Source: an uncultured Actinomycetes bacterium (lineage in GTDB: Bacteria > Actinomycetota > UBA4738 > HRBIN12). Taken from it: a DNA stretch of 64,000 nucleotides. The notes beneath the pieces were generated by a model. The model was not told the origin of the DNA. It was given only the letters and a program-made list of their open reading frames with translations, and made no database searches. This document shows positions 4,601-39,302 of the stretch, one piece after another. The DNA lies in the NCBI GenBank assembly GCA_963778545.1, contig CAVZUW010000003.1, forward strand, positions 26,365 through 90,364, written 5' to 3'. The translations under genes and the position numbers were made by a program. Numbering within the stretch: position 1 is the stretch's first letter; the number at the start of each line of letters is the position of its first letter.

Positions 4601-4617
4601 ACGGAGGTCGGGGGGCG

Positions 4618-10612: not shown

Positions 10613-10616
10613 GCGC

Positions 10617-15323: not shown

Positions 15324-16838
15324 GTGGCTCGTTCCTATCGTTCGGAACCGAACGACCTTCCCCGAGGAGAGGAGCCCCCTACGGGCGGAACCGCCGAGAT
15401 CGAGGGCGTCGAGGTCTCGACCGAGCACTGGATCGGCGGCGAGCGGGTCGGCTCGTCGGAGACCTTCGAGGACGTCTCGCCGATCGACGAGCAGGTCATC
15501 GCCGAGGTCGCGCGCGGCGGCCGAGCCGAGGCCGACCGAGCCGTGGCGGCGGCCCGGGGTGCGTTCGACACGTGGGGGCGGACCTCGGCGGCCGACCGCG
15601 CCAAGGTCCTGCACCGGATCGCCGAGCTCGTCGAGGAGCGCGTCCCCGAGCTCGCGCCGGTCGAGACGCGCGACAACGGCTCGCTCCTGCGCTCGCACCT
15701 GAACTCAGTCATGCCGCGGGTCGCGAGGAACTTCCGCTTCTTCGCCGACCAGCTCACCGAGCTCGGCGACGAGGCGTTCGAGATGAACGAGTTCGTGAGC
15801 CGCACCGAGTGGGACCCCTCGGGCGTCACGGTCGTGATCACGCCGTGGAACGCGCCGCTGATGCTCGCGACGTGGCGCATCGCGCCGGCGCTCGCCGCCG
15901 GCAACAGCGTGGTCGTCAAGCCGCCCGAGTGGGCGCCGCTGACCGCATCGCTCCTGGCCGACATCACGCGCGAGGCCGGCTTGCCCGACGGCGCGTTCAA
16001 CGTCGTGCAGGGGATCGGCGAGGAGGCCGGCGCCGCGCTCACGGGGCACCCCGGTGTCGACCGGATCGCGTTCACCGGCTCGATCGAGACCGGGAAACTC
16101 GTCGCGCAGGCCGCGGCCGCGAACCTCACGCCCACGTCGCTCGAGCTCGGAGGGAAGTCGCCGTTCGTTGCGTTCGCCGACGCCGACCTGGACGCGGTCG
16201 TGAAGCAGGCCGTGAACCAGTTCGACAACGCCGGGCAGGTCTGCCTGGCGGGGACGCGGCTGATCGTCGAACGCTCGATGCACGACATCTTCCTCGAACG
16301 CTTCCTCGAGGCCGCCCGCGCGATCCGCCAGGGCGACCCGCGCGAGGAGACCACCGACATCGGGCCGCAGATCACGCGCGAGCACTTCGAGCGCGTGGAC
16401 GGGTTCGTGCAACGCGCGAAGGCGGAGGGGGCGGAGGTCCTGCTCGGCGGTGGTCCGAACGAGGAGCTCGGGGGCCTGTTCTACCGGCCGACGCTGTTCG
16501 GCTCCGTCCCCGAGGGCGCCGAGGTGCTCCGCAAGGAGGTGTTCGGGCCCGTCCTCACGCTCCAGACGTTCGAGACCGAGGACGAGGCGATCGCGCTCGC
16601 CAACGAGACCGACTACGGCCTGGCCGCGATCCTGTACACCGGCGACCGCGAGCGCGCCGAACGCGTCTCCGAGCGCCTGGTCGCCGGCACGGTCTGGGTG
16701 AACTGCTTCTTCGTGCGCGACCTGCGCGCGCCGTTCGGCGGCGCGAAGTCCTCGGGCGTCGGGCGCGAGGGCGGCGTCTACAGCTTCGATTTCTACGCGG
16801 ACGTCAAGAACGTCTGCTCGGCCCCCTGGGAGGCATAG
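15324..16838 (+). CDS. hpaE: 5-carboxymethyl-2-hydroxymuconate semialdehyde dehydrogenase (HpaE/HpcC-type aldehyde dehydrogenase). Start uncertain
   Basis: Full-length alignment logic to HpcC (HWIGGE...TPWNAPLML...ELGGKSP...CLAGTR). Candidate starts are GTG 15324 or ATG 15258. A strong GGAGGAGAGGAG RBS at 15362-15373 is followed by no canonical start codon. Confidence 0.7.
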   Translation: MARSYRSEPNDLPRGEEPPTGGTAEIEGVEVSTEHWIGGERVGSSETFEDVSPIDEQVIAEVARGGRAEADRAVAAARGAFDTWGRTSAADRAKVLHRIAELVEERVPELAPVETRDNGSLLRSHLNSVMPRVARNFRFFADQLTELGDEAFEMNEFVSRTEWDPSGVTVVITPWNAPLMLATWRIAPALAAGNSVVVKPPEWAPLTASLLADITREAGLPDGAFNVVQGIGEEAGAALTGHPGVDRIAFTGSIETGKLVAQAAAANLTPTSLELGGKSPFVAFADADLDAVVKQAVNQFDNAGQVCLAGTRLIVERSMHDIFLERFLEAARAIRQGDPREETTDIGPQITREHFERVDGFVQRAKAEGAEVLLGGGPNEELGGLFYRPTLFGSVPEGAEVLRKEVFGPVLTLQTFETEDEAIALANETDYGLAAILYTGDRERAERVSERLVAGTVWVNCFFVRDLRAPFGGAKSSGVGREGGVYSFDFYADVKNVCSAPWEA

Positions 16839-17723
16839 ATGGGTGAGATCGTCGGCGCGGCGCTCGTGGCACACGTCCCCACGATCATGCTGCCGGAAGA
16901 GGTACGGCTCGAGATCAACGAGGGCAAGGAGATCACGCTCGTCCCGGGCCTGCACCGCATCAAGTCCGAGAACCTGGACCGGCTCCAGCCGGACGCCGTG
17001 ATCGTGTTCGACACGCACTGGGAGTCCACGTTCGAGCACATCGTGACGAGCCACGAGCGCCGGCAGGGGAAGTTCACCAGCCACGAGCTCCCCCGCGGCA
17101 TGAAGCAGATCCCGTACGACATGCCGGGCGACCCCGAGCTCGCGAACCTGATCGCCGCGCAGGCCGAGGGCCGCGACGACTGCTGGATCCTCGCGAACGA
17201 CGACCCGTACCTCCCGCTCTTCTACGGCACGGTCAACATCTGGACGTTCCTCGGCGATCCCAAGACCGCCTGGCTCAGCGTGGCCCTGAATCAGTGCTGC
17301 GACACCGACGACTTCCTGCTGTTCGGCCGGCTGATCGGCGACGCGATCCGCCAGAGCGAACGCCGGGTGGTGCTCCTCGCCTCGGGAGGGATGACGCACC
17401 GCTTCTTCAACTTCAAGGATCTCCGCCAGCGCGAGAGCCAGAAGGCGCCGGACAACATCTACGACCGGAAGTACTACGACGCCGACATGGGGGTGCTCGA
17501 GAAGTTCGGCAAGGGCGACCACGCCGGCGTGATCGATGGGATGCCCGAGTACCGCAAGGCGTACCCGGAGGGGCATTTCGGGCACTACCTGATGATGGCC
17601 GCGGCGCTCGGCGGAAGGGACTGCACCGCAACCGGAGAGCTGTTCAGCGAGTACGAGGCCTCGGTGGGCACGGGTCAGGTGCACGTGTGGTTCGAGCAAC
17701 CCGAGGGGGGCTGGACGGCGTAG
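16839..17723 (+). CDS. hpaD: 3,4-dihydroxyphenylacetate (homoprotocatechuate) 2,3-dioxygenase, LigB-type class III extradiol dioxygenase
   Basis: 294 aa. VIVFDTHW, LASGGMTHRF and SVGTGQVHVWF match E. coli HpcB. The ATG abuts the hpaE stop. Confidence 0.8.
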   Translation: MGEIVGAALVAHVPTIMLPEEVRLEINEGKEITLVPGLHRIKSENLDRLQPDAVIVFDTHWESTFEHIVTSHERRQGKFTSHELPRGMKQIPYDMPGDPELANLIAAQAEGRDDCWILANDDPYLPLFYGTVNIWTFLGDPKTAWLSVALNQCCDTDDFLLFGRLIGDAIRQSERRVVLLASGGMTHRFFNFKDLRQRESQKAPDNIYDRKYYDADMGVLEKFGKGDHAGVIDGMPEYRKAYPEGHFGHYLMMAAALGGRDCTATGELFSEYEASVGTGQVHVWFEQPEGGWTA

Positions 17724-17775: not shown

Positions 17776-19246
17776 GTGGAAGGCGAACGACCGTTGGTGG
17801 TGACCGAGGAGTACGAACGCCTCGGCGGCAAGAAGCTCTCGCTGATCGACGTGCTCGCGCAGTCGGTCGGCTTCATGGGGCCGGTGTTCAGCGCAGCGTT
17901 CATCATCCCGCTGATCATCGGCGTGAACGCGTCGGGTCGAGGCGCGGGAACCTCCGCCGCGCTCGCCGTGTTGATCGCCGGGATCGGCGTGTTCGCGCTC
18001 GGCTGGATCGTGGCGCAGTACGCGAAGAAGATCCACGCCGCGGGGTCGCTGTACGACTACGTCTCGAACGGGCTCGGCAAGACGATCGGCGCCGCGACGG
18101 GATGGTTGTACTACGGCGGCACGATCATCCTCACGACCGGGCTGGGGTTGCTGATCGGCGGATACGTCCACGACAACCTCCTGCCGGTCCTGGAGATCGA
18201 CCTCGACCTGCCGATCTGGGTGTGGGACACGATCTTCGCGCTCGGCCTGTTCGCCGTCCTGTACTTCGGCGTGCAGATCTCGACGCGGGTGCAGCTCACG
18301 CTCGCGCTGATCTCGATCGCGGTGGTCCTGATCTTCTTCATCACGGTGATCGCCGACCTCGGGGGCGACAACGACATCGCGAAGGCGTTCGACCCGTCGC
18401 CGGCGGGTGGGTTCAGCGGGATCCTGTTCGGCGTGCTGTACGGGGTGCTGATCTTCGTCGGGTTCGAGACCGCGGCGAACCTGGCGGAGGAGACCGCGGA
18501 GCCCAAACGCGCGATCCCACGGGCCGTGCTCGGGGCCGTGGCGATCGTGTCGGTCTTCTACCTGATCGCGGCCTACGTCGAGGTCGCGGGGTTCGGGTTC
18601 GACCTCTCGGTGATCACGAGCCCGGAGGTTGCCGGCGCTCCGCTGTTCGCGCTCGGCGCCCCACCGGGCCCGCCGGGGTCGGAGTTCTGGCTGAAGATCC
18701 TGCTGGTCGTCGTGTTCCTCGACATGCTGGCGGTCTATGTCGGGGCGGCCGTCGCGTCGACCCGCGGCGTGTTCGCGATGGCTCGGGATCGCCGACTCCC
18801 GGGTGGGCTCGCCAAGGTGTCGAAGCGCTACGGGACGCCGGTGGCCGCGATCGTGCTGCTCATGGTCGTGCAGGCGATCCTGATCGTGGTGTCCGAGGCG
18901 AACGACACGCTCCTCGCGTTGCCGGGGCTGCCCGCACTACTTCTCGGTCTTCGTGTGGTGCGCGACGTTCGGAGGCTTCGCGCTCCTGGTCGTGTACTTC
19001 CTGATGTCGATCGGGGCGTTCCGCGGCGTCGGGGAGGACAAGGCGACCGCCGGCCTCATCGTCGCGGCGCTCGTGGGGATCGCGATCACGGCGGCGGCGA
19101 TCTTCGGGTCGTTCTACAAGGTGACGAGCCCGACGCTGCTGGCTCCGTGGTCGGCCGTGATCTGGTTCGCGATCGGCTTGATCTACATGGCGCTGGTCAA
19201 GGGACGCGAGCCCGCGAGCGACGCGCTGGCGGACCTCCGCACGTAG
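17776..19246 (+). CDS. APC-family amino acid permease with a +1 frameshift in a GGGG run at 18924-18927
   Basis: TM-rich N-terminal 385 aa in frame 1. The C-terminal 97 aa (ORF 18953-19246, HYFSVFVWCATFGGFALLVVYFLMSIGAF...) is in frame 2. Deleting one G gives LALPGCPHYF. Confidence 0.8.
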
Positions 19247-19260
19247 CGTCTGATGTCCGG

Positions 19261-19290
19261 AGGGGGAGGCGGGGCCGTCCGGCCCCGCCT
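19261..19290 (+). terminator. Perfect 12-bp stem / 3-nt loop hairpin (GAGGCGGGGCCG-tcc-CGGCCCCGCCTC) 15 nt after the permease stop
   Basis: Inverted repeat read directly in the sequence. No U-tract, as is common in high-GC genomes. Confidence 0.5.
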
Positions 19291-19355
19291 CGTCCTCATC
19301 CTGAGCGAGAACCACACGCTCGATCCCGGCGCGCGATCTCGGGGCGCTGGTTCGG

Positions 19356-20210
19356 ATGGCCGTCGATGCCGAAGCGGCGGGGTTCGACGCCGTGATGGTG
19401 AGCGAGCACGTCGTGCTCGGTCGCGGGGCGGACGCCGGCGGGATGCCCGAGAACCCGCGCGACTACGCGCTGCCCGGGAACCAGGACCCGTCGACGCCCT
19501 GGCCGGACGCGCTCACGATGCTCGCGGCGGTCGCGTCGGCGACGTCACGGCTCCGGCTGGTCGCGAGCTCGATCATCGCGCCGCTCCGTCACCCGCTGCT
19601 GCTGGCCAAACAGCTCGCGACGCTCGACCTGCTGTCCGAGGGACGCCTGGTCGTCCAGCCGACGGTGAGCTGGCACCGGCCCGAGTACGAGGCGCTCGGG
19701 GTGCCGTTCGAGCGGCGCGGCGAGCTGCTCGACGAGCACCTGGCCGCGTGGCGCGTGCTCTGGCGCGACTCGCCGGCGTCGTTCGAAGGTCGCCACTACC
19801 GCTTCTCCGACGTCTGGCTGGAGCCCAAGCCCTTCCGGCCGGAGGGCCCGGCATTGTGGTTCGGCGGCGAGACGATGCACGACCGGCTTCTGAGGCGGCT
19901 GGTCGAGTTCGGGAGCGGGTTCAACCCGCTCGGGCGCCCGAGCGACGAGGATCTCGAGCGGTTGCGTTCGGGGATGAAGGCCGTCGGCCGAGACCCCGCC
20001 GAGCTCGAGATGGTGGGCGGGACGCGAGGGCGGTTCGACGGCCCGGACGGCGTGGCCGATCTGGGCGAGGCGCTCGCGTCGATCCCCGCGCAGCTCGAAC
20101 GCGGCTTCACCACGATCTGCATCAAGCCCTCGCAGTTCATCGACGACCCACGCGAGATCCCCGCGTTCTGCCGCGAGGTCGTCGAACGCGTCGACGCGCT
20201 CGTGAGCTAG
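19356..20210 (+). CDS. LLM-class (luciferase-like) flavin/F420-dependent oxidoreductase. The N-terminus may be longer
   Basis: 284 aa from the first ATG, beginning MAVDAEAAGFDAVMVSEH, which is normally ~30 residues into the LLM fold. Upstream frame 0 reads ARDLGALVRM with no start and frame 2 reads LVLILSENHTLDPG, so an unresolved start or frameshift near 19320-19340 is likely. Confidence 0.7.
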   Translation: MAVDAEAAGFDAVMVSEHVVLGRGADAGGMPENPRDYALPGNQDPSTPWPDALTMLAAVASATSRLRLVASSIIAPLRHPLLLAKQLATLDLLSEGRLVVQPTVSWHRPEYEALGVPFERRGELLDEHLAAWRVLWRDSPASFEGRHYRFSDVWLEPKPFRPEGPALWFGGETMHDRLLRRLVEFGSGFNPLGRPSDEDLERLRSGMKAVGRDPAELEMVGGTRGRFDGPDGVADLGEALASIPAQLERGFTTICIKPSQFIDDPREIPAFCREVVERVDALVS

Positions 20211-20590
20211 GTCGAAGGGCCGTCGACCTCGATCGTCGGCGGGCCGTCGCCGCCGGCACGGATCACGACGCTCCGCGAGGGCTCGTCGCCCGGCGTGCTC
20301 TCGCGATGGACGAGACCGCTCGGGATCACGAGGAAGTCGCCGGCTCCGGCCCGGACGGCCTGCCGGCCACCCTCGCCGAAATCGATCGCCACGGAACCCG
20401 ACATGACGTAGACGATCGTGTCGTGGCCCCCGTGGTGGTGCCAGCCGCTCACGAGGCCGGGCTCGGTCGTCGTGAGCCCCGCCCACAGGCCCGGCTTGGC
20501 GAACGCCTGCCGCCGGTGGATCTCGGGCGGCCCCTCGATCTCGACGAGCTCGTCCGGTCCGATCCGCACGGCGTCCTGTACCTGGCTCAC
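20207..20590 (-). CDS. Cupin-domain protein
   Basis: 127 aa. Cupin motifs WHHHGGHDTIVYVMSG and GDFLVIPSGLVHRE. Confidence 0.65.
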   Translation of the reverse strand: MSQVQDAVRIGPDELVEIEGPPEIHRRQAFAKPGLWAGLTTTEPGLVSGWHHHGGHDTIVYVMSGSVAIDFGEGGRQAVRAGAGDFLVIPSGLVHRESTPGDEPSRSVVIRAGGDGPPTIEVDGPST

Positions 20591-20602
20591 GCGACCACCC
20601 CC

Positions 20603-21949
20603 TCAGATGACGTCGAAGTAGCGCCGTCGTTCCCACTCGCCGACGGCGCCGGGGGACAGGAACTGCTCCCACTCCCACCGGCCCGCCTCCGCGTAGTGCG
20701 CCACCACGTCCTTGCCGAACGCCTCGGGCGCGAACGCGCCGTCGCGGAAGCGTTCGACCGCCTCGCCGAGCGTGGTCGGCAGCGGCGCGACCGGGCGCTC
20801 GAAGTCGGCGCCCATCAGCGGCTCGCCAGGCTCCGCGTCGGTCTCGATCCCGTCTCGAGCCGAGGCGAGCAGCGCAGCGATCGCGAGATAGGGATCCACG
20901 TCGGCGCCGGGCACGCGCCACTCGAGCCGGGTGGACTCGGGCGATTCGGTGAGCACGCGGCACGAGACCATGCGGCTGTCGAACCCCCACGACAGCCCGT
21001 TGCCCGAGAACTCGCCGCTCGTCGTCCGGCGGTACGAGTTCACCGTGGGCGCGTAGAACGGCATGAGCTCGGGCGCGCGTTGCAGCACACCGCCGATCGC
21101 GTGACGGAGCGTCGTCGAGATCCCGTCGCCGTCCTCCGCGTCGTGGAACACGTTGCGGCCGTCGCCGTCGACGAGCGAGAGATGCAGATGGCACGACGAG
21201 CCGGTCGTATCGGCGAACGGCCGCGCCATGAACGTGACCGCCATGCCGGCGTTCGACGCGAGCGTGCGCATCGCGAGCTTGAAGAGCAGGTGCCGGTCGG
21301 CCATCTCGAGCGCCCGCTGGTACTCGAGGTTGATCTCCCACTGGCCGAGGCCCCACTCGACCTGGCTGGTCCACGGTCCGAGCTCCGAGGCGGCGAGCGC
21401 GTCCCGAACGCCCGAGAAGAAGCCCTCGTACCGGTCGCCCGCCTGGATCGTGTAGTCGGCTCGGGCGAGCGTGGTGGGGACGAGCGTCTCGTAGCCGTTC
21501 GCGCGACCCTCGTCGTAGCTGCCGTGGTACAGCGCGAACTCGAGCTCGCTCGCGACCTGCGCGGTCAGGCCGGACTCGGCGAGTCGCTCGACCTGCCGCC
21601 GAAGGATCGTTCGCGGCGCCACCGGCGCGAGCTCGTCCGAACCCATCTCGGCGAAGTCGGCCACGCAGATCGCCGTGCGTTCGAGCCAGGCGGCCGGCCG
21701 CAGCGTCCCCAGGTCCGGGACGAGCCGGACGTCGTGCCACCCGGTGTGGTGCCCGGTGTACTCCTGCACGGGACCCGGCCACTGGTCGACGTCCCAGCCG
21801 AGGACGCAGGAGCTCAGCGGGATCCCCTCGTGCACGACCCTGCGGAACACGTCGACCGACACGCGCTTGCCGACCGGGCGCCCGGTCACGTCCGCCGAGG
21901 TCACGATCACCGTCCCGAACCCGTCCAGATCTGTGAGCTCGAGCGTCAT
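20603..21949 (-). CDS. Glutamine synthetase family protein (type III / gamma-glutamyl-amine ligase-like catalytic domain)
   Basis: 448 aa from ATG 21949 (MTLELTDLDGFGT...). GS catalytic motifs (SCHLHLSL, NSYRR). ATGA overlap with the upstream SDR gene. Confidence 0.85.
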   Translation of the reverse strand: MTLELTDLDGFGTVIVTSADVTGRPVGKRVSVDVFRRVVHEGIPLSSCVLGWDVDQWPGPVQEYTGHHTGWHDVRLVPDLGTLRPAAWLERTAICVADFAEMGSDELAPVAPRTILRRQVERLAESGLTAQVASELEFALYHGSYDEGRANGYETLVPTTLARADYTIQAGDRYEGFFSGVRDALAASELGPWTSQVEWGLGQWEINLEYQRALEMADRHLLFKLAMRTLASNAGMAVTFMARPFADTTGSSCHLHLSLVDGDGRNVFHDAEDGDGISTTLRHAIGGVLQRAPELMPFYAPTVNSYRRTTSGEFSGNGLSWGFDSRMVSCRVLTESPESTRLEWRVPGADVDPYLAIAALLASARDGIETDAEPGEPLMGADFERPVAPLPTTLGEAVERFRDGAFAPEAFGKDVVAHYAEAGRWEWEQFLSPGAVGEWERRRYFDVI

Positions 21950-23511
21950 CGGGTCAGCCACCCCCCGTCGACCGGCAGCAGCGCGCCGGTGATGAACGAC
22001 GCGTCGTCCGAGAGCAGGAACGAGATCGCCGCGGCGACGTCCTCGGGTTCGCCGACGCGGGGGACCAGGAGCCGGTCCTTCATCGAGGCCCACGCCTCGG
22101 GCGAACGCAGGTCGGCGCCGGGGATGAACGAGGTCGCGATCGGTCCCGGCGCGACCGCGTTGACGCGGATGCCGCGGTCGGCGAGCTCGACCGCGAGCGC
22201 CTTCGTCAGCATCTTCACGCCGCCCTTCGATGCGTTGTAGTGCACCTGCGGGTGGCCCGTGGAGGCGACCACGACCTCGGACTCGATCGTCGCGAGGTTC
22301 ACGATCGCCCCGCCGCCCGCGCTCGCGATCACCGGCGCGATCGCCTGCGTCACCAGGTACATCCCCTTGAGGTTCGTGTCCAGGACGAGGTCCCATTCGT
22401 CCTCGGCGAGCTCGTCGAGCGTCGACATCCGGACGAGGCCGGCGTTGTTCACGAGGTAGTCGATGTGCCCGAACGCGTTCACCGCGCCGTCGCGAGCGCT
22501 CTCGATCTCGGAGCGATCGCGCACGTCGGCGTCGAACGCCACGCCGGTCCCGCCGCCGTCCGCGATCGCCGCCACCGTCTCCTCGGCCGCCTCGAGCTGG
22601 ATGTCGACCACGGCCACCGCGGCGCCCTGCGACGCCAGCCGGAGCGCGGTGGCGCGGCCGATGCCGGAACCGGCGCCGGTGATCATCGCGATCTTCTCCG
22701 AATGGTCGAAGCTCACTGGCAGCTCCTGCTGGTACGCGACCTCGGTGAGGTCCATCGCGAGCCCGCCGCCGTCGGCGACGAGCGAGGTCCCGGTGACGAT
22801 CGACGACTCGTCGCTCGCGAGGAACAGGCAGCACGCCGCGATCTCGTCGGCGGTCGCCGGTCGACGGAGCGGGGTGTACTTGGTCACGAGGGCGTAGGCC
22901 TCGTCGAGCGAGATCCCGCGTTCGGTCACCAGGTCCTCCATCGCGCGATCGCCCATCTCGGTGATCACCCAGCCCGGACAGATGGCGTTCGCGCGGATGC
23001 CCTTCGGGCCGTAGTCGACGGCGATCGAACGCGCGAGCCCGTTCATGGCCGCCTTCGAGGTGCCGTAGGCGGCGCTCTCGGTGCCGCTCACGAACGCGTT
23101 CACGCTCGAGATCAGGACGATCGAGCCGCCGCCGCGTTCGATCAGCGGTGGGATCGCGGCCCGCGCGAGCCGGAACGCTCCGGTCAGGTTCACGTCGAGC
23201 GTCCTCTGCCAGCGCTCGTCGTCGACGTCCGCCGCGGCCCCGCCGAACCCCAGACCCGCGTTGGCGACCACGACGTCGAGCCCGCCGAACGCCTCGACCG
23301 CCGTCGCGACCGCCGCGCGGACGTGCCCGTCGTCCGCCGTGTCGCCGGCGAAGGCGAGGCCGCCGGTCTCGGCGGCGACCTCCTCGAGCGGCTCGGCGCG
23401 GCGGCCCGTCACGACGACCTTCGCGCCCTCCCGCGCGAAGAGCCGAGCCGCGGCGGCGCCGATCCCGGTCCCGCCCCCGCTGACGATCGCCACCTTGCCC
23501 TCGAGCCGCAT
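21946..23511 (-). CDS. Fused tandem short-chain dehydrogenase/reductase (two complete SDR domains in one reading frame)
   Basis: ATG 23511 with a GGAGG RBS. Domain 1 has TGGGTGIG...YGTSK. Domain 2 starts around MDLTEV...ITGAGSGIG...YNASK (internal ATG 22755). There is no stop between the domains. Confidence 0.75.
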   Translation of the reverse strand: MRLEGKVAIVSGGGTGIGAAAARLFAREGAKVVVTGRRAEPLEEVAAETGGLAFAGDTADDGHVRAAVATAVEAFGGLDVVVANAGLGFGGAAADVDDERWQRTLDVNLTGAFRLARAAIPPLIERGGGSIVLISSVNAFVSGTESAAYGTSKAAMNGLARSIAVDYGPKGIRANAICPGWVITEMGDRAMEDLVTERGISLDEAYALVTKYTPLRRPATADEIAACCLFLASDESSIVTGTSLVADGGGLAMDLTEVAYQQELPVSFDHSEKIAMITGAGSGIGRATALRLASQGAAVAVVDIQLEAAEETVAAIADGGGTGVAFDADVRDRSEIESARDGAVNAFGHIDYLVNNAGLVRMSTLDELAEDEWDLVLDTNLKGMYLVTQAIAPVIASAGGGAIVNLATIESEVVVASTGHPQVHYNASKGGVKMLTKALAVELADRGIRVNAVAPGPIATSFIPGADLRSPEAWASMKDRLLVPRVGEPEDVAAAISFLLSDDASFITGALLPVDGGWLTR

Positions 23512-23574
23512 CTCGCCTCCTCGATGGGCATAGTCTGCCCTACCGGCGGTCGATGAGCGCGGGGAGGTCGGTGC

Positions 23575-24162
23575 GTGGCGAACATGCAACCGCTGCGGCG
23601 CGAGGAGCACCCGGAGCTCGAGGAGCTCTTCCGGCTGTACGACGACACGTTGTCGTTCGTCCCGAACAGCCTGTTCACGATGGCCCGCCGCCCCGAGATC
23701 CTCCGGGCGTTCAGCGAGCTGATCACCCAGATCTGGCGGACGGGCACGGTCCCGGTCGGGCTGAAGCCGCTCGTCGCGATCGTGGCGAGCACCGCGGCGG
23801 GCTGCCGGTACTGCCAGGCGCACGAGACCGTCGACGCGAAGATGCGCGGGGTCGACGAGGTCAAGATCGCCGAGATCTGGGACTTCGAACGCTCACCGCG
23901 CTACTCGGAGGCCGAGCGCGCAGCGCTGCGGTTCGCGCGCGACGCGAGCGTCGTCCCCAACGCCGTCACGCCCGAGCACTTCGAGGACCTCCGCGAGCAC
24001 TGGGACGACGGCGAGATCGTCGAGATCCTCGCGGTCGTCGGTCTGTTCGGTTTCCTGAACCGCTGGAACGACTCGATGGCGACCGACCTCGAGGAGATCC
24101 CCACCGTGTTCGCCGGGCGGACGATCGGGGCCCACGGGTGGGAGCCGGGGAAGCACGGATGA
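23575..24162 (+). CDS. Carboxymuconolactone decarboxylase / AhpD-like family protein
   Basis: 195 aa. AhpD-core CxxxH-type motif (GCRYCQAHE). Confidence 0.75.
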   Translation: MANMQPLRREEHPELEELFRLYDDTLSFVPNSLFTMARRPEILRAFSELITQIWRTGTVPVGLKPLVAIVASTAAGCRYCQAHETVDAKMRGVDEVKIAEIWDFERSPRYSEAERAALRFARDASVVPNAVTPEHFEDLREHWDDGEIVEILAVVGLFGFLNRWNDSMATDLEEIPTVFAGRTIGAHGWEPGKHG

Positions 24163-25337
24163 CGTTCGGCGAGCAGATCACCCTCGAGGAGCTCGAGCGG
24201 GACCCGTACCCGATCTACGCGCGCCTGCGCGACGAGGAGCCGGTCGCGTGGGTTCCGGCGGTGCAGCTGTGGCTCGTCACGCGGTACGAGGACGTCCGGA
24301 CGGTCGACCTGTCGCCCGAGGCGTTCACGGCCGCGACCGACCCCTCGACGCTGAACCGCACGATGGGCGTCAACATGCTCGGCTCCGAGGGCCCGGACCA
24401 GCAGCGGGTCCGGCGCGTGGTCGAGCCGCCGTTCCGCCCGCGCGACGTCGAGGAGCGGACGAAGGGGATGATCCCGGCGCTCGCGAACGAGCTGATCGAC
24501 GGCTTCGAGGCGCGGGGGGAGGCCGACCTGTTCACCGAGTTCGCCGACCCGATGAGCGTGCGCTCGCTCCGGTTCATGCTCGGGCTCGACGAGGTCGCGT
24601 GGGAGGACCTCCTGCGCTGGAACCAGGGCCTGATGCTCGGGCTCGCGAACTTCGAGGGCGACCCAGCCAAGCAGGCGCCGGCCGACCAGGCGAGTGCGTC
24701 GCTGTCCGAGGTGATCGACCGCGTCCTGGACCGGCTCGCGGACGAGCCCGACGGCTCCGTGCTTTCCGCGATGCTCCACCACGATCGGGACGGCGACCGC
24801 ATGTCACGCGAGGAGATCGTCGCGAACACCAAGCTGATGCTCTCGGGCGGGCTGCAGGAGCCGCGTGACGTGATCGCACTCGTGCTCCACGCGCTCGGCT
24901 CGAACCCCGAGCAGCTCGAGGAGGTTCGCGCGGACCGGCGGCTCGTCAAGCCGGCGGTCGAGGAGACGCTGCGGTGGGCGGGACCCGTCGGCACGTCGAC
25001 GCGGCAGACGACCGAGACGACCGAGCTCGCGGGCGTGAAGCTCGAGGAGGGCGCGCTGATCGGCGCGGTGCTCTCGAGCGCGAACCGCGACCCTCGCCGG
25101 TTCACGGATCCCGACCGGTTCGACGTCCACCGAAAGGAGGGCGCGCACCTGGCGTTCGCGGTCGGGAATCACTTCTGCCTCGGCGCGTGGTTCGGGCGGC
25201 ATCTCGCGCGCGTCTCGCTCGAGATCCTGCTCGACCGACTGCCGGGTCTGCGGCTCGACCCCGACCGCCCGGCGACGTTGTCGGGTTGGGAGTTCCGAGC
25301 CCCGGATTCCACCTGGGCCCGCTGGGATCGCAGCTAG
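24159..25337 (+). CDS. Cytochrome P450
   Basis: 392 aa. EETLRW (ExxR) and haem-ligand loop FAVGNHFCLGAWFGR. ATGA overlap with the upstream AhpD-like gene. Confidence 0.9.
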   Translation: MTFGEQITLEELERDPYPIYARLRDEEPVAWVPAVQLWLVTRYEDVRTVDLSPEAFTAATDPSTLNRTMGVNMLGSEGPDQQRVRRVVEPPFRPRDVEERTKGMIPALANELIDGFEARGEADLFTEFADPMSVRSLRFMLGLDEVAWEDLLRWNQGLMLGLANFEGDPAKQAPADQASASLSEVIDRVLDRLADEPDGSVLSAMLHHDRDGDRMSREEIVANTKLMLSGGLQEPRDVIALVLHALGSNPEQLEEVRADRRLVKPAVEETLRWAGPVGTSTRQTTETTELAGVKLEEGALIGAVLSSANRDPRRFTDPDRFDVHRKEGAHLAFAVGNHFCLGAWFGRHLARVSLEILLDRLPGLRLDPDRPATLSGWEFRAPDSTWARWDRS

Positions 25338-25546
25338 ATCGAGCACGAGGTTAAGGCTGGGTCAAGGATCCGGAGTGCGCGAACGCCGGAGGGAGCAACA
25401 CGGGGAGCGGAAGCGGTTCGGGCTCCGGCTCCGGCTAGGGGGGAAGGGAGGCTTCCCCGCCAGGTTGAGCCGTGCGGAAGTCGCGCCCTCTCGCGGGTTC
25501 GACCGTGCCCTCCAAGTCGGGCAAACGGGCAGGGGCCCGGGACGTC

Positions 25547-25585
25547 CCCGAACCCCTGCCCGTGCTGCGGTGCGATCGGCCTGCA
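25547..25585. terminator. Bidirectional hairpin (GGGCAGGGG...CCCCTGCCC) between the convergent P450 and secreted cupin genes
   Basis: 9-bp GC stem with a 17-nt loop, read directly in the sequence. Confidence 0.4.
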
Positions 25586-25597
25586 GCGTCGGCGGCC

Positions 25598-26063
25598 CTA
25601 CGTGACGTCGCAGTCCTCCGGCTGCGGCTGGTCGATCCGGGGACTACCGTCGGTCGGCACCTTGAAGAACACCACTCCGAGTTCGACGGGCTCCGTGGTC
25701 TCGTTCCGCCCGACGTGAACGGTCGATCGGGAGCTCCACGAACGCGTCCCCTGGTTCGTAGACCAGCGGGGCGCAGTCCTCCGCGTGGTACACGGTGAAG
25801 GTGCCCGACTTGACGGTCACGAGCGTCCGGCCCGGATGTGTGTGCCAACCGGTCGACGAGTTCGGTCCGAACGTGAAACTCGCCACGACGGTGTTCGTGT
25901 TGGGTTTGGCGCGGAACTCGAACTTCTCCTCGGTCGCCCCCGCTCCCAGCACCTCGGAAACAACGGAGCCGGTTGGCCCTGTCGCGATCGCCACGCCGGA
26001 GAGCGTGAGCGACACGGCCATGATCGAAAGAGCGACCACCCACTTGCTGCGGTACTTCATCAT
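25598..26063 (-). CDS. Secreted cupin-domain protein (GWHTHPG family) with a +1 frameshift near 25715-25730
   Basis: Signal peptide MMKYRSKWVVALSIMAVSLTLSGVAIA. Cupin core ...GWHTHPGRTLVTVKSGTFTVYHAEDC...GDAFVELPID. After the shift the frame reads VHVGRNETTEPVELGVVFFKVPTDGSPRIDQPQPEDCDVT and ends at the TAG whose complement is at 25598-25600. Confidence 0.65.
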
Positions 26064-26308
26064 CGTTCCTCCCTCCTCGGATTTCGCGTGATACGCCGAT
26101 CCGCGAGCGCTCCGCCCGTTGTGCGTCCTCCTTCCCTCCGTCGCCGTTTGACTGTCCTCCCGAGGTGAACCGCGGGAGGCTCGGGAGCGATGCGGAGCTC
26201 GAGCTCGCGACCATTCCAGTCGGCGGGCCGCCTCCGCGCTACCGTGCCAGCACGGCAGTCAGTTCACGACCGCATGGCTGGTCTCAAGCGGACTAATCTT
26301 TGGATCCG

Positions 26309-27442
26309 ATGCACCTGCCACGCCGCCCCGCCCGCGCCGAGGTCGTCGGTTCTCTCCTGCGGCCGACCGCTCTACGAGAGGCCATCGACACCTTCTACGA
26401 GCGGGGGCATTCGGCCGTCCTGGATGAGGAGCGCGAGAAGGATCGGACCGCGCTCCGTGAGATCGAGGACGAAGCCATCCGTGGAGCCGTCCAGCGGCAG
26501 ATCGATCTCGGCTTGGATGTTGTTACGGACGGCGAGTTCCGGCGATGGATGTTCATGAACTCGTTCTACGACGCGGTGTCGGGGATCCGGACGGGCAAGA
26601 CCGTGACCTTTCGGAACGACCGTGGCGAGGACGTCGAGCTCGCCGTCCACGAGGTCGTCGAACCCCTCAAGCAGGTCGATTCCCCTGCCGCTCGGGAGGC
26701 AGCGTTCATGGCGAGTGTGACGGCCGGGCATCCCTTCAAGGTCACGCTGCCAGCCGCTTCCATCTTCCTGCACCCGTTCACGACCGTGACGCCGGCATAC
26801 CCGTCGGTGGACGAGTTCGCCGCCGAGGCGATCCGTATCGAGCAGCGGCTCGTTCAGGACATCCTCTTTGCCGCGCCGGATATCCGATTGCAGTTCGACT
26901 TCCCGCTCTACCCCTACCTCGTCGACCCGGCGTGGGTCGAGCGCTTCGAGGCGCGCGGTCATCGCCTGGCCGATCTGGTCGACGCTGCGGTGGCAGCCGA
27001 CACCGCGGTGCTCGAGGGCATCCCCGACGACGTGACCGTGGCGCTCCACATCTGCCGCGGGAACTACCGCTCGTCGTGGATGTGCGAGGGCTCGCTCGAA
27101 CCGGTCGCCGAGCGCGTGTTCGGCGAGCTCCCCTACGACGCTTTCCTGGTCGAGTGGGACGACCTCGGTCGCGACGGCGGGTTCGAGCCCGTGCGGTTCC
27201 TCAGGAAGGGTTCCACGATGGTCATGGGGATCGTCTCGACCAAGACGCCGACGCTCGAGGACGAGGAAGAGCTCGTGCAGAAGATGGAGGCGGCGGCGAG
27301 CCACGTCGGCGGGATGGAACGGCTCGCGATCAGCCCGCAGTGCGGGTTCGCGAGCGTGATGGTGGGCAACGAGATCGACGAGGACGCGCAGTGGCGCAAG
27401 CTCGAGCTCATAGCCCGCGTCGCCGATCGGATCTGGGGTTAA
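26309..27442 (+). CDS. Cobalamin-independent methionine synthase catalytic-domain family protein (MetE C-terminal-like, Meth_synt_2)
   Basis: 377 aa. Motifs HICRGNYRS and ISPQCGF are typical of the MetE-like UroD/MetE fold. Confidence 0.75.
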   Translation: MHLPRRPARAEVVGSLLRPTALREAIDTFYERGHSAVLDEEREKDRTALREIEDEAIRGAVQRQIDLGLDVVTDGEFRRWMFMNSFYDAVSGIRTGKTVTFRNDRGEDVELAVHEVVEPLKQVDSPAAREAAFMASVTAGHPFKVTLPAASIFLHPFTTVTPAYPSVDEFAAEAIRIEQRLVQDILFAAPDIRLQFDFPLYPYLVDPAWVERFEARGHRLADLVDAAVAADTAVLEGIPDDVTVALHICRGNYRSSWMCEGSLEPVAERVFGELPYDAFLVEWDDLGRDGGFEPVRFLRKGSTMVMGIVSTKTPTLEDEEELVQKMEAAASHVGGMERLAISPQCGFASVMVGNEIDEDAQWRKLELIARVADRIWG

Positions 27443-27521
27443 CGCCCTCGCGTTACCTCGTCCGTCGGAGCAGCGCGAGGACCCTACACTTGGCCGTACC
27501 ACAACCTTGCCGGCGGTGCGC

Positions 27522-28217
27522 ATGCAGGACGACCTCAACATCGAGATCGCGGGGACCCTTTCCGAAGGGGAAGGCAAGGATGCGCACGCGCGATCTCCGA
27601 AAACCGGCTGGGAGGAGGTCGTCGAGATCCTGGAGGCGTTCCTCCTCGCCTTCGTCGCGATCGCGACCGCGTGGAGCGGGTATCAGGCGGCGAGGTGGGA
27701 CGGCCGTGAAGCGGAGCTCTACGCGCAGGCCTCGACGATCCGTGTTCGTGCGGACCAGATCCTGACGCTCGGGGGACAGCAGCGCCTGCTCGACGTCACC
27801 ACGTTCAACACGTGGATCGAAGCACGGTTCGAGGGTCGAACGGAGCTGATGGCGCTGTACGAACGTCGCTTCAGCCCCGAGTACAAGGTCGCATTCGATG
27901 CCTGGCTCGCGACCGAGCCGTTCTCGAACCCGGAGGCTCCGCCCGGGCCCAGCTTCATGCCCGAGTACGTCAACCCCCAGCTCGAGCGGGGAGCGGCGAT
28001 GAACGAACTGGCCGCACGCAGGTTCGAGGAGGGAACGATCGCGAGGGGCCACGCCGACGATTACATCCGGACGACCGTGATGCTCGCGACGGTGCTGTTC
28101 CTCATCGCGCTCTCGCAGCGGTTCAGGGTCCGGCGCGTTCGCTACGGCGTCCTCGGGGTGGCGGGCGGACTGATGATCTTCGGGCTCGTGACGATCCTCA
28201 CGTTCCCCCGCCTGTGA
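27522..28217 (+). CDS. Hypothetical membrane protein (DUF4337-like). N-terminal amphipathic region plus a C-terminal TM helix
   Basis: ORF 27507-28217. ATG at codon 6. C-terminal hydrophobic helix TTVMLATVLFLIALS and a second helix GVAGGLMIFGLVTILTF. Confidence 0.5.
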   Translation: MQDDLNIEIAGTLSEGEGKDAHARSPKTGWEEVVEILEAFLLAFVAIATAWSGYQAARWDGREAELYAQASTIRVRADQILTLGGQQRLLDVTTFNTWIEARFEGRTELMALYERRFSPEYKVAFDAWLATEPFSNPEAPPGPSFMPEYVNPQLERGAAMNELAARRFEEGTIARGHADDYIRTTVMLATVLFLIALSQRFRVRRVRYGVLGVAGGLMIFGLVTILTFPRL

Positions 28218-28243: not shown

Positions 28244-29656
28244 ATGACCGAGGCCGACGTCCCGCTGCGGCTCGACGCCCCGCGCGAGGAGGTGCTCGAG
28301 CACGCGGCCAAGCTCGTCGCGGAGGCCTGGCAGAGCTTCGACCGGTACCGGCCCGAGGAGCCCCCGCTCGACGAACGCGTCCGCCGGCTCCTGCAGACCG
28401 AGCTCCCGACGACGCCCGGTTCGGCGCACGAGGCCGTCGACGATGCCGCCCGGATCCTCGACGAGTCGATCGCGCAGCCGCGGCCGCGGTACTTCGTCGG
28501 GGTGGGTTCGAGCGGTCTGGAGATCGGGACGATCGGCGATCTGCTCGCGCACACCTACGACATCAACCTCGCGGTCGACGCGCGCGCCGCGACGCTGATC
28601 GAGAAGCAGGCGGTCCGGTGGGCGGCCGAGTTCATCGGGTACGCGCCCGACGCCGCCGGTGCGTTCACGAGCGGCGGGACCGTCTCGAACACGACCGCGC
28701 TCGCCGCGGCGCGCGAACACGCGCTGCCCGGCTCGCGGTACGAGGGGCTCGGCGGCAAGCGCGTGGCGATCTACTGCTCGCAGGAGGTGCACTACTCGGT
28801 CACCCGGGCCGTCGAGACGCTCGGCGTCGGCTCGGCGAACCTGCGGGCGATCCCCCTCGGGGCCGAACGCGGGCTCGAACCCGATGCCCTCGCCGGGGCG
28901 ATCGACCGGGATCTCGCGGACGGCGTGACGCCGATCGCGGTGGTCGCGACCGCCGGTACGACGCTCACCGGTGCGATCGATCCGCTCGAGGCGATCGCGG
29001 ACATCTGCGAGGAGCGCGGGGTGTGGTTCCACGTCGACGGCGCGTACGGGCTGCCCGCGGTCGCCGCGCGCCCGGAGCTCTTCGCGGGGTTCGAGCGCGC
29101 GCACTCGGTCGCGGTCGACGCCCACAAGTGGCTCTACCTGCCGAAGGCGTGCGGGGTCCTCCTGGTGCGGAACCAGGAGGACCTGGTGGCGTCGTTCGGG
29201 CACGAGCAGGGGTACCTGCCGCACCAGCGGCACGAGCTCCACGCGATGGACACGACCTTCGAGTACTCCAGGCCCTTCCGCGCGCTGAAGTTCTGGCTGG
29301 CGATGCGGGTGCACGGGGCCGCGGCGTTCGCCGAGGCGATCGAACGCAACCTGGCCCAGGCGCAGCTCCTGTACGACACGGTGTCGGCGCGGGACGACTT
29401 CGAGGCGCTCGGGCCGCCGAAGCTGTCGATCGTCGCGTTCCGTCACGCTCCCGCGAGCGCCGGCGACGTCGGCGCGCACAACGAGCGGCTGGCCGAGGCG
29501 ATCCAGGCCGACGGGCGCGTCTGGATGTCGAGCGCGCTGATCGACGGCGAGGTCTGGCTCCGGCCGTGCTTCGTGAACTTCCGAACCACCGAGGAGGACG
29601 TGCTCGACGTGGTCGAGATCGCCGCCGAGATCGGCGAACGCCTCGCCACCGTTTGA
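28244..29656 (+). CDS. Group II PLP-dependent amino-acid decarboxylase (DABA/tyrosine/glutamate decarboxylase-like)
   Basis: 470 aa from ATG 28244. Motifs TSGGTVSNTTAL and SVAVDAHKWLYLPKACG (PLP lysine). Confidence 0.85.
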   Translation: MTEADVPLRLDAPREEVLEHAAKLVAEAWQSFDRYRPEEPPLDERVRRLLQTELPTTPGSAHEAVDDAARILDESIAQPRPRYFVGVGSSGLEIGTIGDLLAHTYDINLAVDARAATLIEKQAVRWAAEFIGYAPDAAGAFTSGGTVSNTTALAAAREHALPGSRYEGLGGKRVAIYCSQEVHYSVTRAVETLGVGSANLRAIPLGAERGLEPDALAGAIDRDLADGVTPIAVVATAGTTLTGAIDPLEAIADICEERGVWFHVDGAYGLPAVAARPELFAGFERAHSVAVDAHKWLYLPKACGVLLVRNQEDLVASFGHEQGYLPHQRHELHAMDTTFEYSRPFRALKFWLAMRVHGAAAFAEAIERNLAQAQLLYDTVSARDDFEALGPPKLSIVAFRHAPASAGDVGAHNERLAEAIQADGRVWMSSALIDGEVWLRPCFVNFRTTEEDVLDVVEIAAEIGERLATV

Positions 29657-29714
29657 GGGACGCCCGCCCGTCTAGACTGCTCACGCTGAACACACGGAGG
29701 GGAGCTCACCGGAG

Positions 29715-30209
29715 ATGACCGAGCCGTTGGTCGGTGTCGTGATGGGGTCGGCGTCCGATTGGGACACGATGCAACACTGCGCCCAGCAGCTGGAGGCGTT
29801 CGGCGTCCCGTTCGAGACCCGGGTGCTCTCGGCACACCGGACGCCGAAGGAGCTCGCGGCCTGGATCGAGGACGCCGAGTCCCGTGGCGTCGAGGTCTTC
29901 ATCGCCGCCGCGGGCATGGCGGCCGCGCTCCCCGGCGTCGTCGCCGCCCACACCACCAGACCCGTGCTCGGGGTGCCGATGGAGTCCAAGCTCGCGGGCG
30001 GGCTCGACTCGCTGCTCTCGATGGTGCAGATGCCGGGCGGGATCCCGGTCGGCGTGCTCGCCGTCGGCAAAGCCGGAGCGGTGAACGCGGCGATCCTCGC
30101 GACCCAGGTGCTCGCACGCTCGCAGCCCGGGTTGGACGAGGCCGTGCGGAAGCACCGTGAGGCCAAGGCGGCCGAGATCCTGGCCAACCTCGATCCTTCC
30201 GAGGCTTGA
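29715..30209 (+). CDS. purE: 5-(carboxyamino)imidazole ribonucleotide mutase
   Basis: 164 aa. GVVMGSASDW, AHRTP and GVPMESK motifs. Confidence 0.9.
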   Translation: MTEPLVGVVMGSASDWDTMQHCAQQLEAFGVPFETRVLSAHRTPKELAAWIEDAESRGVEVFIAAAGMAAALPGVVAAHTTRPVLGVPMESKLAGGLDSLLSMVQMPGGIPVGVLAVGKAGAVNAAILATQVLARSQPGLDEAVRKHREAKAAEILANLDPSEA

Positions 30210-32957: not shown

Positions 32958-33236
32958 CAGCGCGATGAAGCTCGCCCACTCGCAGATGCTGAACGCGACG
33001 AACGCGAGCTGCGCGCGGGCGAGATCGGGGTTGCGGAACGACGCGGCCAGGGCTCGAGCCGAGACGACGAGGTCGCGTTTGATCTCGGAGAGCGCGGAGG
33101 CCGCCTCAGCGGGCGGATCGTCGATCGGGGTGCCCTTCTCGTTCGGGTCCGGTGGCCCGCGGGTGGGCCGCGGGGCCTCACGTTACGCTCCCGCGCCCCC
33201 TTCCATCCCGCAGCGGGACCTCGGTAGCCTTGACCC

Positions 33237-39242: not shown

Positions 39243-39302
39243 GGCGCAGCGAAATCGTGGCCGGAGGCCTAATTCCCCATCAGCGGGAGTAGGCTCCTAG
39301 CC

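Follow-up and report, generated by a model that had tools for sequence, protein, structure and literature searches.

A lineage-conserved gene cluster with a glutamine synthetase-like ligase, a cytochrome P450 and a putative ring-cleavage pair in uncultured soil actinomycetes

Described systems that the cluster resembles

Gamma-glutamylation is a known way in which bacteria handle reactive amines, including putrescine, isopropylamine, ethanolamine and aniline. We analyzed a gene cluster built around a predicted ligase of this kind within a 64,000-nucleotide stretch (hereafter, the window) of contig CAVZUW010000003.1 from an uncultured Actinomycetes bacterium (GenBank assembly GCA_963778545.1). 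The cluster is about 14 kb long and spans roughly 15.3-29.7 kb of the window; an earlier note on the same DNA, which proposed an amine or xenobiotic catabolic cluster, covered only its middle. The cluster is real and conserved within its lineage, and the window holds a trimmed version of a larger form, the gene content of which most likely reflects a route that gamma-glutamylates a phenolic arylethylamine (tyramine, dopamine or 3-methoxytyramine type) and then degrades it with meta cleavage of the ring. To our knowledge, no described route joins gamma-glutamylation to catechol formation by a P450 and ring cleavage of the homoprotocatechuate type.

The logic of the cluster matches that of the Puu, Ipu, GlnA4 and AtdA1 systems; beyond the class of its ligase, the defining tests place it in none of them. 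The GlnA4 pathway of Streptomyces coelicolor (SCO1610-1615, with a predicted dehydrogenase, aldehyde dehydrogenase [ALDH] and hydrolase) and the window share a Phe at the position of Escherichia coli GlnA E327, an adjoining gene of the short-chain dehydrogenase/reductase (SDR) family and a nearby permease. However, the window has two SDRs, no hydrolase and no PuuC-type ALDH, its ligase is 35-38% identical to the GlnA4-like/5dm3 group (5dm3 is a C. salexigens ethanolamine-pathway protein of the Csal_0679 group), and this module is set among genes for ring cleavage, a P450, a MetE-like protein and a decarboxylase. The ipu cluster of plasmid pTC1 follows the same logic with the same enzyme classes, from gamma-glutamylation through a P450 and dehydrogenases to amidotransferase-type hydrolysis; it differs in having its own ferredoxin and reductase, a P450 that acts on the alkyl group, no ring-cleavage genes and a ligase, IpuC, with 34% identity to that of the window. 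The Puu system of E. coli and the AtdA1/NpaA1 systems for aniline and 1-naphthylamine share the ligase-first logic and the release of glutamate by a class-I amidotransferase-type enzyme. Whereas full versions of the cluster carry genes resembling PuuC and PuuD, PuuA is only 29% identical to the window ligase, and the cluster has neither the FAD oxidase nor the Rieske dioxygenase of these systems.

Two further systems resemble the part of the cluster concerned with the aromatic ring. The CYP255 O-demethylases GcoA, AgcA and SyoA, together with CYP1232, are the best structural-sequence matches of the window P450 and share its heme Cys motif and a Gln-Glu pair; unlike theirs, the window gene has no adjoining GcoB-type reductase gene, is coupled to a gene for an AhpD-like protein with a CxxC motif and is followed by a MetE-like gene. 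The homoprotocatechuate pathway (HpaD, E, G, H, I) has in common with the cluster the order of an ALDH gene before a LigB gene, and an HpaG-like FAH enzyme is encoded in sister genomes and on plasmids. In these fuller versions, an MppR-like protein of the Adc family takes the place of the hydratase and aldolase, and scores fall under the equivalog cut-offs. The window itself encodes only the first two steps of the homoprotocatechuate type, with no FAH or aldolase gene in its 64 kb.

The cluster and its predicted enzymes

The window has a GC content of about 70%, and six-frame lists of its open reading frames (ORFs) consisted mostly of spurious frames. Genes were placed by profiles of third-position GC (GC3) and then named using Pfam and NCBIfam, which gave the following features (GS, glutamine synthetase; PLP, pyridoxal phosphate).

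15324 or 15396 to 16838, forward strand: HpaE-like ALDH, the semialdehyde dehydrogenase type of ring cleavage (Pfam Aldedh 5e-160)
16839-17723, forward strand: LigB-family extradiol dioxygenase, HpaD-like, abutting the ALDH stop codon (Pfam LigB 7e-22)
17776-19246, forward strand: APC-family amino-acid/amine permease, in two frames (Pfam AA_permease 1.4e-39)
19253-20210, forward strand (from 19356 in the earlier note): F420-dependent LLM-class oxidoreductase of the Rv2161c family (NCBIfam TIGR03619)
20207-20590, reverse strand: small cupin, convergent with the LLM gene (Pfam Cupin_2 3e-12)
20603-21949, reverse strand: GS-like protein of 448 aa (Gln-synt_C 1.7e-84)
21946-22716, reverse strand: SDR-B (Pfam/NCBIfam), its stop codon overlapping the GS start
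22713-23511, reverse strand: SDR-A, reading through into SDR-B in the window
23575-24162, forward strand: CMD/AhpD-like protein with a CxxC motif, AAGCRYCQAHE (Pfam CMD 1.7e-14)
24159-25337, forward strand: cytochrome P450, related to the CYP255/CYP1232 aryl O-demethylases
About 25338-26299, strand not applicable: low-GC spacer of about 1 kb
26300-27442, forward strand: MetE-like (Meth_synt_2) protein (PRK06520 223 bits, under cut-off; structure match 1ypx)
27507-28217, forward strand: membrane protein with no assigned function
28244-29656, forward strand: group II PLP-dependent amino-acid decarboxylase (Pfam Pyridoxal_deC 1.2e-54)
29712-30209, forward strand: PurE

The start of the ALDH gene is uncertain, with a GTG at 15324 and homology with relatives from 15396. 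All genes listed in the earlier note (the GS-like gene, two SDR domains, the AhpD-like gene, the P450, the cupin, the LLM gene and the APC gene upstream) were found by GC3 together with Pfam and NCBIfam. The two translational couplings that it had claimed are visible in the sequence as ATGA overlaps, one of the SDR stop with the GS start at 21946-21949 and one of the CMD stop with the P450 start at 24159-24162, and the SDR/GS and CMD/P450 operons are indeed divergent, with only about 63 bp between them. No credible candidate for a riboswitch or leader RNA was found between 13 and 31.5 kb.

Compared with E. coli GlnA, the GS-like protein conserves metal, ATP and glutamate ligands (E129, E131, E212, E220, H269, H271, R321, R339, R344, E357 and R359) and has lost residues of the ammonium site (E327 is Phe, Tyr179 aligns with a gap and S53 is Cys). 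GlnA4 (F331) and PauA7 are reported to be altered in a similar way at this site (PMC6529630). Because the catalytic ligands are kept while the ammonium-site residues are lost, we predict that the protein does not make glutamine but acts as a gamma-glutamyl-amine ligase, and that it belongs to an uncharacterised subfamily. It scored 190.6 bits against the GlnA equivalog (cut-off 429), 230 bits against gln_synth_III (cut-off 470) and 227 bits against GGputSyn, the PuuA model (cut-off 650). Based on the scores under the cut-offs, 25% identity to E. coli GlnA and the loss of E327, a true glutamine synthetase of type I or III was rejected. The protein has 35% identity to PDB entries 11zs and 5dm3, for which the scores were 267 and 233 bits; NpaA1 (8wwu, AtdA1-type) scored 143 bits.

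In a neighbour-joining tree of 19 sequences (100 bootstraps), proteins from Mycolicibacterium, Amycolatopsis, Rhodococcus, Streptosporangium, Acidimicrobiia and Dormibacteraeota form the sister group of the window clade (bootstrap 99). Together, these are sister (87) to 5dm3, 11zs and a Streptomyces "GlnA4-like" reference that was picked by gene context in S. viridifaciens and is not the characterised protein, the tree including no authentic S. coelicolor GlnA4. In this comparison, which the earlier note had proposed against the PuuA, IpuC and AtdA1 clades, GlnA, PuuA and IpuC fall outside, and membership in PuuA/IpuC was rejected on that basis. The earlier note had counted a grouping with GlnA4 against its own reading on the premise that GlnA4 is assimilatory. 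This premise is wrong: GlnA4 is a gamma-glutamylethanolamide synthetase (PMC6529630), so a position near GlnA4-like proteins supports gamma-glutamylation rather than refuting it.

The closest relatives of the ligase (70-97% identity) all come from metagenome-assembled genomes (MAGs) labelled "uncultured Actinomycetes bacterium" or "Actinomycetota bacterium", many of them from one long-read soil survey and one of them a closed chromosome of 3.45 Mb (OY969934.1, with the reduced architecture described below). The protein matches to both the ligase and the P450 were taken up by this same uncultured lineage, and the informative gene contexts came from a plasmid collection. Among the matches listed, the nearest cultured relative of the ligase is from Mycolicibacterium brisbanense (54%), where the gene lies with a permease, a peptidase C26 hydrolase, an SDR and an ALDH; this full, hydrolase-bearing module, together with the residue pattern, supports the proposal of the earlier note that the GS-like enzyme serves gamma-glutamylation. 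The S. viridifaciens context is similar in content, with a permease, the GS gene, a member of the gamma-glutamyl-GABA hydrolase family, an ALDH and SDR genes. An SDR of the SDR-B type lies directly upstream of the GS gene in loci L039-L066, with 55-65% identity across phyla, and the same placement of SDR-B ahead of the GS-like gene is seen in Mycolicibacterium, Amycolatopsis, Rhodococcus and Dormibacteraeota. By analogy, the nearest functional counterpart of the ligase would be the amino-alcohol (GlnA4) type, with SDR-B as its conserved partner.

Among solved structures, the best relatives of the window P450 are 6g71 (270 bits, 39.7% identity; presumably CYP1232A24), SyoA 8u09 (252 bits, 37.5%) and GcoA (230 bits, 36.7%), with biosynthetic P450s at about 170 bits. 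By nomenclature convention, membership in a P450 family calls for at least 40% identity, and all three identities lie under that line. The protein has the heme motif FAVGNHFCLG, and its I-helix motif SGGLQEP(RD) aligns with Gln252/Glu253 of SyoA and Gln248/Glu249 of GcoA. This Gln-Glu pair replaces the acid-alcohol pair and is needed for the monooxygenase and peroxide-shunt activities of the aryl O-demethylases, of which SyoA is functional only with peroxide (PMC11842817). Based on these motifs and scores, the window P450 is a relative of the CYP255/CYP1232 aryl O-demethylases and not a clear member of either family. Neither the cluster nor the 1-kb spacer after the P450 contains any ferredoxin or reductase gene, including a dedicated reductase gene of the GcoB, AgcB or SyoB type; a search of the spacer for a small ferredoxin returned only a low-GC fragment of a secreted cupin. 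The coupled CMD protein scored 65 bits against TIGR01926 (peroxidase-related), under the cut-off.

These results bear on the pathway that the earlier note had favored, in which an ipu-type P450 hydroxylates a gamma-glutamyl alkylamide, SDRs and an ALDH oxidise the product, and a hydrolase is encoded elsewhere. The pTC1 cluster of Paenarthrobacter aurescens does contain these enzyme classes (ALDH, SDR, amidotransferase, P450, ferredoxin, reductase and IpuC), and the second P450 of sister genomes is CYP125/124-like, of a family that hydroxylates terminal methyl groups. However, the window P450 is of the aryl O-demethylase kind with its Gln-Glu pair and no ferredoxin or reductase, its homologues on cultured replicons are unlinked to GS-like genes, IpuC falls outside the window clade, and the ALDH is tied to a ring-cleavage dioxygenase. 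We regard an ipu-type alkylamine pathway as highly improbable.

The ALDH/LigB pair, the MetE-like protein and the decarboxylase, all missed by the earlier note, together point to an aromatic substrate. The best NCBIfam models were HpaE for the ALDH (524 bits, cut-off 638) and HpaD_Fe for the LigB protein (141 bits, cut-off 316), neither cut-off being reached; the family-level Aldedh and LigB matches hold, and the genes occur in the order ALDH then dioxygenase (E-then-D). The best structure for the LigB protein is 8iq8, a 3,4-dihydroxyphenylacetate 2,3-dioxygenase. On Streptomyces plasmids, an ALDH with 62-66% identity to that of the window precedes LigB, and plasmid homologues of the LigB protein (49-53% identity) adjoin GS-like and P450 genes. 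The LLM oxidoreductase passes the TIGR03619 model (192.6 bits, cut-off 166.9). The MetE-like protein retains HxC...C zinc-site motifs, and its gene adjoins the P450 gene in 27 of 28 related loci. The solved structure most similar to the decarboxylase is 4obu, with desferrioxamine-pathway and DOPA decarboxylases next, and its best matches range across enzymes for tryptophan, DOPA, lysine-type substrates, diaminobutyrate and aspartate; in deeper-branching relatives, the gene adjoins the APC permease gene.

Conservation, frame breaks and plasmid counterparts

We counted cluster genes in 28 loci of at least 18 kb, each from a different species-level genome of the uncultured soil actinomycete lineage. 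GS was present in all 28, SDR-A and MetE-like in 27 each, P450 and decarboxylase in 26 each, LigB in 25, APC in 24, SDR-B in 23, ALDH in 21 and LLM in 20. With CMD in just 11 loci, the AhpD-like protein was rejected as an obligatory partner of the P450; the cupin occurs in five, all from the closest relatives. Two architectures were found, of which type A, that of the window, lacks several genes present in type B. In type B, one operon holds GS2, SDR-A, SDR-B, GS, a CYP125-like P450 and LLM with gaps of about 20-80 nt, a second holds ALDH, LigB, APC, the decarboxylase and MarR, and on the other side lie P450, MetE-like, a class-I amidotransferase, the HpaG-like FAH enzyme and the MppR-like Adc-family gene. 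Between the two types, the decarboxylase gene has been relocated and the LLM gene inverted, both remaining within the cluster, which argues for selection on clustering. The expectation in the earlier note that the genes would be co-conserved is thus confirmed across the 28 genomes despite rearrangements; conservation throughout an entire uncultured soil lineage makes the xenobiotic substrate that it had suggested unlikely.

The spacer between the P450 and MetE-like genes looks like an insertion remnant. It includes a low-GC ORF (25644-26063, reverse strand) encoding a signal-peptide-bearing cupin fragment with a garbled C-terminus, and the same gap is much shorter in relatives (87 nt in L030).

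The earlier note had remarked on a missing hydrolase and allowed that the pathway might be incomplete. Such a gene is indeed absent from the window, and a class-I amidotransferase/peptidase C26 hydrolase is encoded in nine of the 28 sister loci, with more at locus edges. Separately, 30 kb from the cluster, a second ALDH gene is followed by an amidohydrolase-family gene (54170-56964, forward strand); this pair is dissimilar to the PuuC/PuuD-like pair found on plasmids (32% for the ALDH).

The earlier note had also described a fused double SDR. Using tblastn, we aligned this 522-aa sequence against 76 related loci and found the two halves in different frames almost everywhere. In seven relatives, mostly short-read-type MAG assemblies, the TGA of SDR-A overlaps the GTG of SDR-B (GGAG..CC-GTGAGC, a GTGA overlap), whereas the junction in the window reads GCCAGTGAGC, with one extra base at about 22717-22720 that merges SDR-A and SDR-B into one frame. 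The score against PRK06484, the fused two-domain SDR, was 350 bits (cut-off 713). A fused two-domain SDR was rejected accordingly, as the orthologous domains lie in separate frames and the window carries one additional base.

Three other genes are broken. The permease is split by an extra C in a CCC run near 18918; the intact permease of L003, a short-read-type MAG, is 478 aa long and aligns to window frame 1 up to 18909 and to frame 2 from 18926. The LLM gene is broken near 19322, with the N-terminal ~25 codons in another frame, recovered from the ATG at 19253. The gene for aminopeptidase N (PepN, with M1 N-terminal and catalytic domains and ERAP1_C; 10611-13194, forward strand) is split near 12130, and its orthologue in L003 is a single intact gene of 853 aa. 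All three are unbroken in L003. GC3 is 0.90-0.95 on either side of every break, and the proteins of the broken genes are 83-98% identical to intact orthologues. Two relatives assembled from long reads, L063 and L082 (ENA contig_7440_segment0), carry independent breaks of their own. Since the coding signal and identity stay high across the breaks, and since long-read MAG relatives show their own independent breaks, the simplest explanation is that the breaks in the window are probably assembly indels.

If the breaks were instead real pseudogenisation, the window would hold a decaying remnant that has lost a ligase, a hydroxylase, a hydrolase and the lower pathway. Four breaks in 13 kb fit such decay, as does the absence from the window of GS2, the CYP125-like P450b, FAH, Adc, the amidotransferase-type hydrolase and MarR. 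In contrast, GC3 and identity stay high around the breaks, as given above, the sister long-read MAGs are broken at different places, one break consists of a single C added to a homopolymer run, and the reduced type A architecture is unbroken in the short-read-type MAGs L002-L005; we consider decay improbable.

The noisy long-read contigs L082 and L063 also show how abutting or overlapping stop and start codons come to be called as fusions, with a CMD-P450 protein of 587 aa and an ALDH-LigB protein of 741 aa. The CMD-P450 fusion protein P0125 was rejected as a sign of a partnership between the AhpD-like protein and the P450: it is an artefact, its noisy source contig also joining ALDH to LigB and breaking GS into pieces. 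For this lineage, "Rosetta-stone" fusions among database proteins cannot be relied on and, as a practical warning, overlapping stop and start codons easily become false gene fusions in long-read MAGs.

Counterparts of the cluster were found on replicons of cultured bacteria. On a plasmid of Streptomyces canus NBC_00633 (L087, 44.6-65.5 kb), the order is a P450 (52% identity to the type B CYP125-like protein), a GS-like gene (37% to GS2), a ferredoxin, a reductase, an MppR-like Adc-family gene, an ALDH (62% to that of the window), LigB (49%), an HpaG-like FAH gene (70-75% to the type B gene), TetR, a second P450, a ferredoxin, a TIGR03619 LLM (64% to that of the window), an APC permease, an ALDH with PuuC as its best model (568 bits) and a PuuD-like hydrolase. 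Plasmid pSLUN1 of S. lunaelactis MM109 (L083) has in addition MarR and a tyrosine-decarboxylase-like enzyme, and a plasmid of Novosphingobium sp. EMRT-2 (L084) carries a P450, a GS and an ALDH adjoining LigB, plus FAH and Adc genes. Published work documents Adc-family proteins as aldolases and reports their induction next to a catechol dioxygenase in Saccharolobus (PMC7820114). The plasmids thus show the link between a GS-like ligase, a P450, an HpaD/E-like pair and finishing enzymes of the Puu-like kind in two phyla besides the uncultured lineage, in a cluster that is apparently uncharacterised on these cultured replicons.

These fuller versions also bear on whether the cluster is biosynthetic. 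Its product would then be a small molecule or cofactor specific to the lineage: an amino acid would be decarboxylated, carried as a gamma-glutamyl amide and modified by the P450, the SDRs, the MetE-like methyltransferase-type enzyme and the F420 reductase, and LigB would open the ring. Glutamate acts as a carrier in some natural-product pathways, a decarboxylase is encoded in the cluster along with MetE-like and F420 enzymes, and the cluster is present beside housekeeping genes in every sampled genome of a lineage with small genomes (3.45 Mb in one relative). Nevertheless, no core biosynthetic enzyme, product-assembly ligase or cluster-specific exporter was found, and the permease is of the importer-type APC family, with MarR or TetR regulators present. 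Moreover, full versions have a complete Hpa-like and Puu-like degradative lower pathway that ends in a hydrolase, and the plasmid copies in cultured bacteria resemble catabolic islands. A biosynthetic role is quite improbable on this evidence.

Candidate pathway, other features of the window and implications

We infer from gene content that the parts of the cluster belong to one pathway, along with its substrate and the order of its steps; for the window, this single-pathway reading is tentative, with somewhat less than an even chance of being right. The APC permease would import the amine or its amino acid, and the PLP-dependent decarboxylase would make the amine, which the GS-like ligase would attach to glutamate. 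A P450 would turn the gamma-glutamylated amine into a catechol, the HpaD-like LigB enzyme would open the ring next to the hydroxyls and the HpaE-like ALDH would oxidise the resulting semialdehyde. The HpaG-like FAH enzyme would then isomerise and decarboxylate the product, and the MppR-like Adc-family enzyme would hydrate and cleave it to pyruvate and a gamma-glutamyl-aminoaldehyde. With the side chain of dopamine, 2-(gamma-glutamylamino)ethyl, the aldehyde released would be gamma-glutamyl-4-aminobutanal, on which PuuC acts, and the PuuC-like ALDH followed by the PuuD-like hydrolase would yield gamma-aminobutyrate (GABA) and glutamate. That the final aldol cleavage, by comparison with the homoprotocatechuate pathway, would yield a PuuC substrate may account for the recurrent pairing of Hpa-like with Puu-like genes.

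Of these parts, the window retains the permease, the decarboxylase, a single ligase and its two SDRs, the ring-cleavage pair, the F420-dependent LLM enzyme and the CYP255-like P450; its 64 kb contain neither the second ligase nor the CYP125-like hydroxylase, and no hydrolase or lower pathway. The ligase that it keeps is the SDR-linked paralogue, that of the GlnA4-type amino-alcohol module. Its P450 would form the catechol by O-demethylation, possibly with peroxide, and the fact that its sole P450 is of the O-demethylase type suggests methoxylated substrates, such as 3-methoxytyramine or homovanillate-like compounds.

Several findings weigh against a single pathway in the window. The FAH enzyme, the Adc-family aldolase, GS2, the CYP125-like P450 and MarR all have no counterpart in its 64 kb, and neither does a gamma-glutamyl hydrolase (class-I amidotransferase/peptidase C26). 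On cultured replicons, LigB and ALDH are accompanied by a ligase of the GS2 type and not by that of the window. The best NCBIfam models for the decarboxylase are diaminobutyrate and aspartate decarboxylases, with low scores that do not pin down a substrate. Homologues of the window P450 on cultured Rhodococcus and Rhizobium replicons (43-45% identity) lie in aromatic clusters without a GS-like gene, beside a ferredoxin, a reductase and protocatechuate dioxygenase in Rhodococcus opacus and beside an APC permease, an ALDH and HpaB/C-like hydroxylase genes in Rhizobium. The housekeeping gene pepN is also syntenic in the lineage, so adjacency alone is weak evidence. Lastly, literature searches returned no paper on the catabolism of gamma-glutamyl-tyramine or gamma-glutamyl-dopamine or on clusters of a GS-like gene with a P450 and an extradiol dioxygenase.

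Alternatively, the window may carry two neighbouring pathways whose adjacency comes from inherited synteny: a GlnA4-type module for an amino alcohol such as ethanolamine (APC, SDR-A, SDR-B and the ligase) beside a methoxy-aromatic module, in which the P450 demethylates a compound of the guaiacol or homovanillate type and LigB and the ALDH then cleave the catechol. In Mycolicibacterium and Streptomyces, the SDR-GS pair forms a self-contained module together with genes for a permease, a C26 hydrolase and an ALDH, which matches the predicted GlnA4 pathway (PMC6529630), the P450 homologues of Rhodococcus and Rhizobium plasmids sit in aromatic settings of their own, and the retained position of pepN also fits inherited synteny. 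However, an operon of sister genomes joins GS and the SDRs to GS2, the CYP125-like P450 and LLM, which belong to the LigB/ALDH module on plasmids; the cluster holds together through one inversion and one translocation; and the module in the window lacks the hydrolase and PuuC-type ALDH that would complete an ethanolamine route. We think separate pathways somewhat unlikely. Of the amine-cluster reading in the earlier note, the gamma-glutamylation logic and the co-conservation are supported; the alkyl-hydroxylating P450, the SDR fusion and the xenobiotic substrate are not.

Extending the single-pathway reading, the full form in sister genomes and on the S. canus, S. lunaelactis and Novosphingobium plasmids could be an undescribed route from amines of the tyramine or dopamine type to pyruvate, GABA and glutamate, which would end with the two closing steps of putrescine breakdown. 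The window would then carry a derivative of it, with catechol formation from methoxylated substrates taken over by a CYP255-like O-demethylase that lacks a reductase, is capable of peroxygenase activity and is coupled to a thiol AhpD-like protein. We regard this combined proposal as unlikely.

Other features of the window lie outside the cluster. A region at about 38000-49908 resembles an integrated element, with GC falling to 0.63-0.66; it includes D5_N and DUF5906 primase-like genes at 46369-47752 and a tyrosine integrase (48794-49756, reverse strand) directly beside tRNA-Arg(TCT) at 49833-49908. An ORF of ~890 aa (35877-38564, reverse strand) has weak GH26, fibronectin-III and RGI-lyase-like matches and contains an 840-bp tandem duplication (repeats 35884-36183 and 36724-37023, at least 300 nt at 100% identity), which is either very recent or an assembly artefact. 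An MFS transporter (31392-33182, reverse strand) ends in a fused cyclic-nucleotide-binding domain; this architecture is unusual and suggests that a nucleotide gates transport directly. A Ku homologue (33234-34148, forward strand) adjoins a pirin/quercetinase-like bicupin (34159-34878, reverse strand), with no LigD seen nearby. At 3398-7034 (forward strand), three successive paralogous MFS_1/MFS_3 genes of the "transmembrane secretion effector" type follow a class-V aminotransferase and SerA.

The recurrent full cluster is a more valuable lead than the window's copy, and its core is carried by three cultured strains that lend themselves to experiment. The proposed pathway, if correct, would give functions to members of the widespread "glutamine synthetase family", Adc family and TIGR03619 F420 enzymes, and it would add to the candidate O-demethylation catalysts a CYP255-like P450 that has no reductase gene close by and may or may not need one. 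It would also explain the use of plant- or microbe-derived phenolic amines by abundant uncultured soil actinomycetes and some streptomycetes.

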